From positions 1 through 61,106 of the forward strand of contig JAUYMJ010000028.1 in the NCBI GenBank assembly GCA_030698775.1: a stretch of 61,106 nt of DNA. Reading direction: 5' to 3'. The DNA is from a bacterium (GTDB taxonomy: Bacteria > Patescibacteriota > Microgenomatia > Levybacterales > UBA12049). Under the pieces are notes generated by a model. It was not told where the DNA came from, made no database searches, and saw only the letters and a program-made list of their open reading frames with translations. Positions 11,928 to 14,458 of this stretch are shown here, one piece after another. Each line of letters opens with the position of its first letter. The first letter of the stretch is position 1. The position numbers were made by a program, and so were the translations under genes.

Positions 11928-12002
11928 TGCGAATGGCAAATGGCACATAGCAAATAGTTTTTAACAATTCGCTACTTCGCCATATACTATTTGCCTCTCA
12001 TT

Positions 12003-12392
12003 ATGTCCAACGTCACCACGCTGATTTTTGTTGAAAGCAGATACAAGGTAAGCAGGAAACGGATAAAAAATGTTGTTGCACGGACACTTACCACGAACAA
12101 CATTCACTCGAACGTTGAAGTTTCCGTGGCTATTGTCGGTGACAGGAAGATGACACTGCTCAACGGAAAATACCGCAACAAAACAGGAACGACCAATATA
12201 CTCTCTTTCCCGCTTGCCGAAGGGGAGCAAACGAAGCTACCGGAAACAAATACGACCCACCTTGGTGACATTGTAATCTCGTATCCAGTTGTCATTAAAG
12301 AAGCAGCGAGGGATGACATGCTCGTCGATGAGAAAGTTGAGCAGCTCGTGGAGCATGGACTCAATCATTTATTGGGAATACACCACGAGTAA
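12003..12392 (+). CDS. ybeY: rRNA maturation endoribonuclease YbeY
   Basis: HGLNHLLGIHHE zinc motif. ATG 12003 lies within the ORF-track frame 11991..12392. Confidence 0.85.
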   Translation: MSNVTTLIFVESRYKVSRKRIKNVVARTLTTNNIHSNVEVSVAIVGDRKMTLLNGKYRNKTGTTNILSFPLAEGEQTKLPETNTTHLGDIVISYPVVIKEAARDDMLVDEKVEQLVEHGLNHLLGIHHE

Positions 12393-12508
12393 AAGAATCT
12401 AGAGTTCAGAGTCTAGAATTAAGAATTGTGTATAGAGTTTAGCATTATTAACTTTCTACATTCTTCATTTCATTCTGAATTTTGCACTCTACATTCTAAA
12501 TTTCATTT
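12393..12508. repeat. AT-rich word-built intergenic element (tctaga/attcta words)
   Basis: gaatctagagttcagagtctagaatt ... ctacattct ... ctctacattctaaatt. Confidence 0.5.
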
Positions 12509-14089
12509 ATGGTTTACTACCGCACATACCGTCCCCAGACAATTGATGAACTGGACAACGAGGATGTAAGAAAGACACTCCTCAGTGTCCTGTCTTCTCC
12601 TGAGCCTCCCCATGCATTTCTTTTTACCGGTCCCAGGGGACTTGGCAAAACGTCAAGTGCTAGGATTGTTGCAAAAGCCCTCAACTGTGAGCGTCTAGCG
12701 CCTAGTACATTAGGGTCTAGTTCCAAGAAAGAAAAAGATAATAAAGAGGGTGATAAAAAACTAAGCGCTAAACGCCCTACGCTAGACGCTCATGTGGAGC
12801 CGTGTAACGAGTGTGATACCTGTACATCTATCACAAACGGCACAAACCTTGATGTCATGGAGATAGACGCTGCGTCAAACAGGGGGATAGATGAGATCCG
12901 CGACCTTCGTGAAAAAATCAGGCTTGCCCCTGTCTCGGCGCGAAGAAAAGTGTACATTATCGATGAAGTGCACATGCTGACAAATGAAGCGTTCAACGCC
13001 CTCCTAAAAACACTTGAAGAGCCACCAAGCCACGTGGTGTTTGTTCTCGCAACGACAGAACCGCAAAAAGTACCTGCGACAATTCTCTCCAGATGCGTAC
13101 ATATTCCGTTCCATAAGGCGACAGAGGATGAGCTGATCCGCTCATTTAAAAGGATTGCCAAAGGTGAGAAACTTCACGCAGGCGAAAATGTACTCATCGA
13201 GATTGCAAAGTTATCAGAGGGAGGGTTTCGTGACGGTGCAAAAATCCTTGAGGAGTTAGCTCTTTCGGTTAAGGATGGAACAATCACACTTGAGACGGTT
13301 GAGAAGCTGCACCATAATGCCAGTATCGCGTCGTCTGTAGCAACACTTTTGTCCCATCTCGCAAAACGCGATTTGAAAGAAAGCGTGTTACTTGTTGAGC
13401 ATGTCGTAGCGGAGGGCGGGGATATGACGGTTTTTCTAGGCCAACTCTTGCAACGTGTCCATGAGCTGCTTCTCCAAAGGGTAGACCCTGTAAAGAAAAA
13501 AGACGTTCTTTTCGATCTTCACGAACTGGCCACTCTCTCAGACGTTTTGCAAAAAGCATATAGTCAGATGCGCTATGCAGTCGTGACGTCACTCCCCATC
13601 GAGCTTGCGATAATAGACTTTCTTTATGGACGGGGTGAGGAGGAGATAGAGCCTGGCACAAAGGAAAAACCTTCCGTGATAAAAACAGAGGATAATGAGC
13701 AGAGTATGTATGCATTCCGGAAAAAAGTGGGGGAATTGCATAAAAAACGTGCAGTATTAGGTGAAGAAGAAAAAGAAAAAAAAGAGGCCGTGAGCGCAAC
13801 GGGTGCGAGTCTTATGGCTTATCGTGCAAACGGTGCGTTGTCTGAGGAGTGGCTTTTGCAGTTTTGGAAAACTTTCATCACAAAGCTCAAGGAATATAAC
13901 CATACGATTTCAGGAGTGCTCCGGGGGTGTACGCTTAAGAGTTTTGACAGGAAGGCGCTTGTTATTGAAACATCATACAAATTCCATAAAGACCGGCTGA
14001 GCGAAGCGAAGACGCTTCTTGCTCTTGAAGAAGCTGCAAAGGCGCTCGCTGGAAATCCGGTAACAGTTACGATAGAATTAAAAAAATGA
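12509..14089 (+). CDS. dnaX: DNA polymerase III subunit gamma/tau, with an in-frame insertion in the zinc module
   Basis: Motifs are GPRGLGKTS (Walker A), DEVHML, LKTLEEPP and SRC. There are about 32 extra residues between ALNCE and PCNECDTC. Confidence 0.9.
   Translation: MVYYRTYRPQTIDELDNEDVRKTLLSVLSSPEPPHAFLFTGPRGLGKTSSARIVAKALNCERLAPSTLGSSSKKEKDNKEGDKKLSAKRPTLDAHVEPCNECDTCTSITNGTNLDVMEIDAASNRGIDEIRDLREKIRLAPVSARRKVYIIDEVHMLTNEAFNALLKTLEEPPSHVVFVLATTEPQKVPATILSRCVHIPFHKATEDELIRSFKRIAKGEKLHAGENVLIEIAKLSEGGFRDGAKILEELALSVKDGTITLETVEKLHHNASIASSVATLLSHLAKRDLKESVLLVEHVVAEGGDMTVFLGQLLQRVHELLLQRVDPVKKKDVLFDLHELATLSDVLQKAYSQMRYAVVTSLPIELAIIDFLYGRGEEEIEPGTKEKPSVIKTEDNEQSMYAFRKKVGELHKKRAVLGEEEKEKKEAVSATGASLMAYRANGALSEEWLLQFWKTFITKLKEYNHTISGVLRGCTLKSFDRKALVIETSYKFHKDRLSEAKTLLALEEAAKALAGNPVTVTIELKK
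12689..12791. repeat. palindrome-bounded insertion inside dnaX
   Basis: The perfect 12-nt inverted termini are gagcgtctagcg (12689-12700) and cgctagacgctc (12780-12791). The same words (agcgtctag, ctaaacgct) recur at 14090-14155. Confidence 0.75.
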
Positions 14090-14155
14090 GTAGCGTCTAG
14101 TTAGTTAGCGTCTAGTGAGGAACTAAACGCTAACCACTGGTTGCTAAACGCTGAA
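14090..14155. repeat. palindromic intergenic element sharing words with the dnaX insertion
   Basis: gtagcgtctagttagttagcgtctagtgaggaactaaacgctaaccactggttgctaaacgctg. Confidence 0.7.
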
Positions 14156-14167
14156 AGGAGGTGTTTT

Positions 14168-14458
14168 ATGTTTAATCCATTCGGACAAATCTCAGAAATC
14201 AAAAAGATGCGCGATCAGGCGATGCAGATCCAGCGCCAACTTCAGGAAGAAGAGGTCATTGTTGATAAGCACGGAGTGCACATCGTCATAACAGGCGACC
14301 AAAAAATAAAAGAGCTCCAGAGCAACGGCAAATCAGACAATGATATACGGGATGCCATAAACGAAGCAGTAAAAAAATCACAAGAAGTCGCTGCAAAGAA
14401 ACTGCAAGCCATGGGGGGGCTAGGGAGCCTTGGCAATATGCTTGGCGGAGGAAAATAG
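14168..14458 (+). CDS. ybaB: YbaB/EbfC nucleoid-associated protein
   Basis: The gene sits right after dnaX and has the coiled N-terminus and Gly-rich tail typical of YbaB. SD AAAGGAGG precedes ATG 14168. Confidence 0.75.
   Translation: MFNPFGQISEIKKMRDQAMQIQRQLQEEEVIVDKHGVHIVITGDQKIKELQSNGKSDNDIRDAINEAVKKSQEVAAKKLQAMGGLGSLGNMLGGGK

Follow-up and report, generated by a model that had tools for sequence, protein, structure and literature searches.

A hairpin repeat in frame within dnaX

We analysed a 61,106-nucleotide (nt) stretch of DNA (the window; contig JAUYMJ010000028.1 of GenBank assembly GCA_030698775.1) from a bacterium of the Patescibacteriota (Microgenomatia, Levybacterales, UBA12049), and within it dnaX, the gene for the tau/gamma clamp-loader subunit of DNA polymerase III. 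Between its first two zinc-binding cysteines this gene contains extra DNA, a 105-nt segment (12688–12792) whose ends form a perfect inverted repeat, two 13-nt arms lying 79 nt apart. The segment is an in-frame copy of a dispersed hairpin family whose arms are built of tandem TAGCGNN / NNCGCTA units, and the zinc loop that it occupies is a repeatedly rewritten site, not the scene of one accident. The relevant features of the gene are as follows, all on the forward strand.

12509–14089, forward: dnaX (DNA polymerase III tau/gamma clamp-loader subunit), intact open reading frame (ORF) of 526 amino acids (aa)
12686–12688, forward: codon of the first zinc ligand, Cys60; the left inverted-repeat arm starts on its third base (direct reading)
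12688–12700, forward: left arm of the perfect 13-nt inverted repeat, TGAGCGTCTAGCG, 100% complementary to the right arm
12689–12724, forward: left heptamer arm, GAGCGTC TAGCGCC TAGTACA(t) TAGGGTC TAGTTCC (direct reading)
12725–12760, forward: purine-rich centre of 36 nt, encoding KKEKDNKEGDKK (direct reading)
12761–12792, forward: right heptamer arm, CTAAGCG CTAAACG CCCTACG CTAGACG CTCA (direct reading)
12780–12792, forward: right arm of the perfect 13-nt inverted repeat, CGCTAGACGCTCA, 100% complementary to the left arm
12803–12823, forward: codons of the other three zinc ligands, Cys99, Cys102 and Cys105 (CNECDTC; direct reading), all invariant in 120 homologues

Of 2,000 codon shuffles of dnaX, 9 produced a perfect inverted repeat of 13 nt or more, and the predicted fold of the segment (−41.5 kcal/mol, z = −5.0) was equalled by none of 200 shuffles. 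An earlier reading made from the letters and ORFs of the window (the sequence-only reading) had described perfect inverted repeats of 12 nt; they are indeed perfect and extend one base further. With these arms the segment has the terminal inverted repeats expected of a miniature inverted-repeat transposable element (MITE).

The arms also bear marks of the reading frame. A perfect (TAGCGTC)n array in the frame of dnaX would give an in-frame TAG within three units, and the inner units of both arms depart from TAGCGTC exactly at these would-be stops, the right arm having CCT in place of TAG. Such stop-avoiding variants are the signature of a repeat that must be translated. An intein or intron is ruled out by the size of the segment, its open frame and these variant units. 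A programmed frameshift of the kind found in E. coli dnaX was also rejected, as direct reading shows no in-frame slippery heptamer and the site lies at codons 60–95, where a frameshift would yield a useless product. Searches for an intrinsic terminator or promoter at the hairpin gave nothing beyond chance, the main stem having no T-tail, and no credible match to a known RNA family was found in Rfam.

The insert extends the zinc loop of DnaX

A genome search found no second dnaX, so the insert sits in frame in the sole copy. The protein matches PF13177 (2e-38), in two pieces separated by the insert, and PF00004 (1.8e-13), and its translation contains the AAA+ P-loop (GxxGxGKT, as GPRGLGKTS) and the SRC motif (as ILSRC). 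The match to the E. coli gamma/tau chain (E ~1e-50) is split in the same way, with query residues 62/97 corresponding to chain residues 66/71, which implies an excess of about 30 residues. The zinc module of E. coli DnaX has the form C-x8-C-x2-C-x2-C. All four cysteines are kept here (Cys60, Cys99, Cys102 and Cys105) and are invariant in 120 homologues, and the spacing between Cys60 and Cys99 is 38 residues compared with 8 in E. coli. The stretch from NCE to PC is RLAPSTLGSSSKKEKDNKEGDKKLSAKRPTLDAHVE, 36 residues in length. Eight residues separate the first two cysteines in 65 of 78 diverse bacteria, which are mostly distant and served solely as a baseline for normal loop length. The roughly 32 extra residues proposed in the sequence-only reading thus come to about 30, and the figure of about six that it gave for B. 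subtilis at the NCE-to-PC position agrees with Bacillaceae DnaX (C-EHAPTEEP-C), which has exactly six there.

An AlphaFold model built from a 120-sequence alignment had a mean pLDDT of 85.6, falling to 48–75 over residues 61–100, with no secondary structure at residues 69–102. The top Foldseek match of the model was 8giy_D, from the E. coli clamp-loader tau/gamma chains (TM 0.82). The insert is thus, as predicted by the model, a disordered Lys/Ser-rich loop extension of about 30 residues that leaves the zinc ligands and ATPase fold intact. Because the model is of low confidence and unstructured at this position, its fold is matched and the four cysteines are invariant, the insert is most simply seen as a tolerated, exposed and hydrophilic loop beside the zinc site, as had been suggested from the sequence.

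The segment belongs to a dispersed heptamer-hairpin family

Two words of the insert, AGCGTCTAG and CTAAACGCT, recur in the spacer downstream of dnaX, in keeping with the shared vocabulary that the sequence-only reading had noticed there. This spacer holds an intergenic member of the family:

14091–14152, no strand assigned: hairpin between the dnaX stop codon and the ybaB ribosome-binding site, TAGCGTCTAG twice, then CTAAACGCT twice

It folds at −25.4 kcal/mol on the forward strand and at −29.2 kcal/mol (z = −5.9) on the reverse strand. With one mismatch allowed, the window contains 15 word matches compared with 6.5 expected, a number reached in none of 100 shuffles. Across the genome (1.28 Mb in 105 contigs, 89% complete) AGCGTCTAG and AGCGTTTAG each occur 40 times, and the copies form 43 clusters. 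Clusters with two or more words were intergenic, exactly between ORFs, in 16 of 23 cases, and in a typical cluster direct heptamers are faced by their complement, the whole fitting exactly into the gap from a stop codon to the following ribosome-binding site.

Other clusters lie in frame in the genes for TsaD, a UvrD-type helicase, a GT4 glycosyltransferase and a large surface protein, where they encode DnaX-like peptides (for example, LNAKRLTLNA and LASS). The in-frame TAGCG pieces of TsaD (C95:19578–20657), the helicase (C95:14377–17385) and the glycosyltransferase (C46:12552–13748) read LDAKRLTLAA, LNAKRLTLNA and LASSVQLENRELNANQLDA. The TAGCG words are one family among many: period 7 stands out genome-wide, with 508 triple matches compared with 30–125 at periods 5, 6, 8 and 9, and the genome contains 84 heptamer arrays made of many different words. 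One copy, at C84:3832–3934, is a composite element in which TAGCG-family arms surround a separate GC-rich hairpin (cagccagaggctgatccgcctttggcggaag).

The zinc loop is the main site of insertion and deletion in DnaX of relatives

An intact dnaX was present in all 40 relatives searched. Among 121 DnaX homologues the loop ranged from 8 to 56 aa with a bimodal distribution (peaks near 10–13 and 30–38 residues), and it is the main site of insertion and deletion in the protein, with a length standard deviation of 10 aa compared with 4 or less elsewhere. Loops of at least 20 residues occurred at the exact position of the insert in 22 of the 37 relatives' loci for which DNA sequence was available. These long loops share the heptameric construction: their self-match at period 7 was 0.51 compared with ~0.28 at other periods, period 7 was dominant in 20 of the 22, and fold z-scores were below −2 in 10 of the 22 compared with 1 of 22 control segments. 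The sequence-only reading had allowed that the orthologs might all share one homologous loop without inverted termini; instead the loops differ, and many are significant hairpins by this measure. Relatives also indicate that the native loop was replaced by the cassette rather than cleanly inserted into.

The words themselves vary by genome (GGAATCA, AATTCAA, AACTCAA, CAATTAA, CAGAAGA, CGTCGCA and others), and they tend to be words that the genome uses elsewhere. In all five further relatives tested, the word pair of the loop was also found elsewhere in the owner's genome; one such pair had 12 other sites in its own genome and none in the four others. AGCGTCTAG is amplified here (40 copies) and in G004 (29 copies), whose dnaX loop also contains AGCGTCTAG. 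It is not amplified in two genomes of the same genus (6 and 4 copies), and their loops are built of other words.

At the class level, DnaX matches split by long inserts were found in seven of seven genomes of the window's family, two of four of the neighbouring family and roughly a tenth of the remaining families. Closely related loci can differ entirely: L038 has a short loop and compact junctions of 5 and 20 nt; in its sister L037 all three positions carry heptamer hairpins. Loop and adjacent spacers shared at least one 8-mer in 16 of 24 loci (permutation p = 0.035), strongly so in five, the window included, which gives modest support to local copying between them. Loop length was uncorrelated with downstream spacer length (rho = 0.19, p = 0.32).

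One locus at which the same site is occupied carries an unexpected label. L039 (CAZZEB010000006.1, labelled uncultured Gammaproteobacteria; 38% GC) encodes a 36-residue DnaX loop made of CAGCAGC-type heptamers, with a period-7 self-match of 0.55 and a hairpin of −29 kcal/mol. Unless this label is doubtful, the phenomenon extends past the candidate phyla radiation (CPR).

Cassettes are probably exchanged and replaced among lineages

A window-type cassette of equal length, arms and centre included, is present in P0002, whose DnaX is 66% identical, and collinear versions (ERLASS...SSKKEK...LNAKR.TLNA.IEP) occur in four DnaX proteins that are ~50% identical (P0047, P0103, P0109 and P0112). A cassette common to such diverged proteins is therefore old or exchanged. 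On a DnaX tree computed without the loop the window-type carriers are scattered, requiring at least eight changes, and a single clade is rejected (approximately unbiased (AU) test p = 1e-55, for cassette groups that were defined only after the tree was known). One carrier, P0047, falls within a clade of DnaX proteins with a conserved short loop (TGRKDTSGKDIEP).

Turnover is also visible between close strains. Outside divergent blocks, the pairs P0006/P0007, P0043/P0055 and G001/P0009 are ~97%, 92% and 89% identical, and their cassettes are unrelated; each pair is wholly different in the spacer before dnaX and in the one between dnaX and ybaB, and within the gene at the zinc loop and at a C-terminal linker insert. 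The divergent tracts of P0006/P0007 reach into the flanking codons as synonymous changes, which points to short-patch recombination between alleles. Given the old or exchanged cassette, the loops of other words at the same position and the unrelated cassettes in near-identical strains, the idea of the sequence-only reading that an intergenic-type element had landed in dnaX stands in part: the words are those of a family of mostly intergenic hairpins and they do lie in frame in the only dnaX, and the single landing event is not supported.

Smaller differences accompany these replacements. Two loci, L003 (reverse-complement coordinates 1443–1490) and L119, differ by 14 nt, exactly two heptamer units, in a GAAATTT-type array upstream of dnaX, and this difference is direct evidence of unit slippage. 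P0006 and P0007 are further distinguished by a 42-nt insertion or deletion at position 985 of L031. In P0043 (L120:1588–1709), dnaX has a second in-frame palindromic insert (…ataaacgctgatcaaaacgctgaag…cagcgattta…) in the C-terminal linker, which is replaced in the ~92% identical strain.

Cassette arms are conserved at the nucleotide level

In the comparison of the window with P0002, identity at third codon positions was 0.81 in the loop compared with 0.42 in the rest of the gene, while protein identity was 62% in the loop compared with 93% in the N-terminal flank. Among identical residues, the codons were also identical at 20 of 22 positions in the loop and at 146 of 325 in the rest of the gene (Fisher 2e-5). 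In the arms, 32/38 (left) and 31/36 (right) positions are identical (84–86%); in the centre the first 15 nt agree at 14 of 15 positions and the middle 16 nt at 6 of 16. Five more pairs of homologous cassettes, including other word families, behaved alike, with third-position identities of 0.61–0.76 in the loop and 0.34–0.45 elsewhere in the gene, and a pair of non-homologous cassettes showed no such excess. This pattern would arise if selection or conversion acts on the nucleotides of the arms, or else if the genes that host the cassettes are older than the cassettes themselves. In either case the behaviour is that expected of an element and not of a stretch of protein, and the saturated centre would favour the first reading, a constraint on the arms.

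PF05635 genes lie between inverted heptamer arrays

A profile search identified three PF05635 (23S_rRNA_IVP) genes in the genome, each between inverted heptamer arrays. The gene at C24:16252–16623 is flanked by TAGCGNN/CTANNCG arms of the same family as the dnaX loop, and its last codons (ELSAKR-stop) contain a 15-mer, CTAAGCGCTAAACGC, whose only other occurrence in the genome is at 12761–12775 in the right arm of the dnaX insert. When its arms were joined without the gene they folded at −49.3 kcal/mol (z = −5.4). Over the interval C24:16215–16705 the gene occupies the loop of a TAGCG hairpin, and its last five codons and stop codon belong to the 3′ arm. The other two genes (C24:11514–11885 and C7:6636–6992) lie between inverted arrays of other words, and the C7 copy is also flanked on both sides by a ~45-nt direct repeat.

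In relatives the number of PF05635 copies per ~1-Mb genome ranged from 0 to 20 (G011, 20; G025, 11; G004, 10), with no copy in 10 of 41 genomes, and among 14 well-known control genomes the family was found in Bacteroides thetaiotaomicron only. A strong period-7 array was present on at least one flank at 19 of 30 PF05635 loci and on both flanks at 12 of 30, compared with 7% of random 160-nt segments, a generous contrast since such segments are mostly coding. Copy number did not correlate with dnaX loop length (rho = 0.16, p = 0.41). As spacer length did not correlate with it either, we rejected the idea that loop length is driven by the load of elements across the genome. The dnaX of G001 has a heptamer loop, and this genome gave no PF05635 match. 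Because copy number does not predict loop length and because of the G001 case, the PF05635 link is a lead, not a mechanism.

The 36-nt centre of the dnaX element has no ORF and its arms do not enclose a PF05635 gene, so the dnaX copy is at most an ORF-less derivative of a PF05635-bearing hairpin cassette. PF05635 is not known to have transposase activity. A broader scheme, which we consider doubtful, is that the heptamer hairpins in general derive by loss of the ORF from a mobile cassette carrying PF05635 (an Avd-like four-helix bundle), with the arms kept in register by a trans-acting factor, possibly the PF05635 protein. Intervening sequences (IVSs) of rRNA, junction spacers and in-frame loops would then be three landing places of one element class that swaps whole cassettes at fixed sites.

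A DNA-level explanation and its rivals

We consider it likely that the segment is a non-coding-type DNA hairpin repeat that DnaX must read through, and that the cassettes at this site are rewritten as DNA. Most family copies fill gaps between genes and a few sit in frame in tolerant protein loops. The dnaX element would behave as DNA rather than protein, its arms being held at the nucleotide level, and replacement of whole cassettes, or their exchange between lineages, would far outpace the divergence of the gene. Likely routes are copying or gene conversion between arrays, slippage by 7-nt units and short-patch recombination between dnaX alleles. The dnaX element would probably be an ORF-less relative of the hairpin-armed cassettes that carry a PF05635 gene, and no benefit to the host would be required.

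Several observations weigh against this explanation. A target-site duplication was sought by direct reading and only a TG dinucleotide flanks both ends of the dnaX element. Centres differ between family copies, which have only the heptamer arms in common, so there is no fixed full-length element consensus. Mobilisation of the RAYT/IS200 type was rejected, since the Y1/RAYT transposase (PF01797) was not found in this 89%-complete genome, other transposase families not having been searched (the same search found PF01797 in 6 of 14 control genomes). Translation of the loop is suggested by its open frame and avoidance of stops. The cassette groups of the AU test were, as stated, chosen after the tree. 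The conservation of the arms could also mean that the arms have a function, and the loop word of G002 is confined to its own dnaX, from which it follows that some loops may have grown in place. The last two points lead directly to the two principal alternatives.

If the arms do have a function, the hairpins could be cis-elements, that is, DNA or RNA recognition sites for a trans-acting factor at gene junctions (in RNA processing, translation coupling or chromosome organisation), and the dnaX copy a bystander or a tuner of expression. The conservation of the arms well above synonymous sites while the centre drifts would fit this, as would words kept across genomes with ~50% identical DnaX, the exact placement of copies between stop codon and next ribosome-binding site, and the association of the arrays with a multi-copy gene for a nucleic-acid-binding type of four-helix bundle (PF05635). 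We nevertheless judge it unlikely. Each genome has many words, which are freely swapped in close strains and fit a specific operator poorly, and L038, a close relative, has compact junctions, a short loop and none of these elements. Selection at the RNA level on one strand was rejected, since the antisense strand gives the stabler hairpin in 10 cases and the sense strand in 9. The lack of a terminator tail and of an Rfam family also speaks against a cis-element. The association with PF05635 is itself offset by the unrelated copy number and by the heptamer loop of G001.

We give still less credence to pure growth in place, in which a heptanucleotide microsatellite expands by local slippage and becomes palindromic through intrastrand template switching, with nothing copied in and common words reflecting a mutational bias of the lineage. 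The identical words of 9 to 15 nt at ~40 dispersed sites, and the 15-mer common only to the PF05635 cassette, are hard to reconcile with it, as is the recurrence of the entire cassette, arms plus centre, in unrelated DnaX backgrounds. A fast-slipping microsatellite should show the reverse of the synonymous-site conservation observed. Slippage does leave its traces, in the genome-wide period-7 excess and in the two-unit difference between the close strains L003 and L119, and an excess of heptameric simple sequence repeats in bacteria has been noted in the literature (PMC4692102). The word confined to dnaX in G002 and a left arm that begins within the native Glu codon, so that no clean element boundary is visible, also suit growth in place.

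Selection on the protein loop itself, with the repeats as raw material, is a very improbable cause. The loop might in principle allow escape from a phage or competitor clamp-loader inhibitor or add a contact with DNA or a partner, and its extreme variability in an otherwise conserved essential protein, near-identical strains included, and its always hydrophilic, Lys-rich composition could be taken in that sense. However, the non-coding spacers on both sides of dnaX turn over identically, changes between homologous cassettes are not concentrated at non-synonymous sites while synonymous sites are conserved, the model predicts disorder, and many relatives do well with a loop of 8–13 residues. That the segment was mis-joined from an intergenic repeat can be practically discounted: the assembly is a fragmented metagenome assembly of 105 contigs and dispersed repeats can mislead assemblers, but the frame is open, the segment adds a whole number of codons, the same place is occupied by an orthologous cassette of equal length in an independent assembly (ERR6857195), and collinear versions come from other samples.

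Comparison with known repeats

For the hairpin repeat read through by DnaX, the closest published analogue, by likeness of behaviour, is the Rickettsia palindromic elements (RPEs; Ogata et al. 2000 Science 290:347, 2002 Genome Res 12:808), as they are presented in a review (PMC10969869). Both are palindromic repeats of ~100–150 bp without a transposase of their own, both are found between genes and also in frame in unrelated housekeeping genes, where the extra peptide is compatible with the fold, and both have hosts with small, reduced genomes. RPE families have a full-length consensus that encodes a conserved peptide, whereas the family described here shares heptamer arms only and its centres are unrelated; the likeness is therefore one of behaviour, not of membership. 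Unlike RPEs as described there, the genomes studied here have many word families, and close relatives fill one and the same site with different cassettes. RPEs belong to Rickettsiales and the dnaX family to CPR/Patescibacteria, and the comparison implies no relation in sequence. If our explanation is true, the Rickettsia behaviour of "selfish DNA inside genes" has an independent and more dynamic counterpart in the CPR.

Heptanucleotide repeats form a class of their own, which includes the cyanobacterial STRR and the excess of heptameric simple sequence repeats (Mrazek 2007). TAACTGA repeats have been described in Beggiatoaceae, Cyanobacteria and Bacteroidetes, and resemble the dnaX family in their dispersed tandem 7-nt units, patchy spread and lack of a known mechanism (PMC4679880). 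Another likeness is their position, for the most part immediately before start codons, with some copies within ORFs. They are direct repeats with essentially one word per genome (169 direct sets and one indirect set in Beggiatoa; PMC4679880). In contrast, the dnaX family consists of inverted pairs that form hairpins, has many word families and fills in-frame loops at common hot spots.

The REP/BIME sequences with their RAYT transposases and the bacterial MITEs (Correia, ERIC, RUP), reviewed in PMC10969869, are like the dnaX family in that their small palindromes are dispersed over gene junctions, end in inverted repeats and occasionally lie in frame. The dnaX family differs from them in its tandem-heptamer arms, in having no fixed consensus and no target-site duplication, and in that no RAYT/Y1 was found.

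ORFs of 23S_rRNA_IVP (PF05635) have been reported in CPR rRNA insertions (PMC11270868, J Bacteriol 2024), in a text that does not mention heptamers, palindromes or inverted repeats. The 23S rRNA IVS is a long hairpin, with a small four-helix-bundle ORF in the loop of its full form, and lies at sites that tolerate extra sequence, as hairpins of the dnaX type do; the dnaX element differs in having no ORF, lying in a protein-coding gene and having to be translated, not cut out. The link to PF05635 cassettes is a testable lead on the role of these enigmatic 23S-rRNA-IVS proteins.

Literature searches on CPR heptanucleotide repeats, in-frame palindromic repeats in Patescibacteria and insertions in the DnaX zinc module returned nothing relevant. 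An essential replication protein would here tolerate a zinc loop overwritten repeatedly by hairpin repeats that evolve under DNA-level, not protein-level, rules. The loop, which can be empty, filled or swapped, offers a clean natural assay for the origin and spread of long-unexplained heptamer repeats, and such inserts skew gene prediction, alignment and tree building for CPR marker proteins.

Neighbouring genes and the upstream spacer

On either side of dnaX lie ybeY (11991–12392) and ybaB (14168–14458), and the gene order S21–ybeY–dnaX–ybaB–prs is held in common with relatives. The ybeY–dnaX spacer (12393–12508) contains other repeat words and a small palindrome around tctagagttcagagtctaga; its sole Rfam match is a spurious sub-threshold miRNA. 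It also carries a 20-nt direct repeat, TCTACATTCT.CATTTCATT, at 12455–12474 and 12488–12507.

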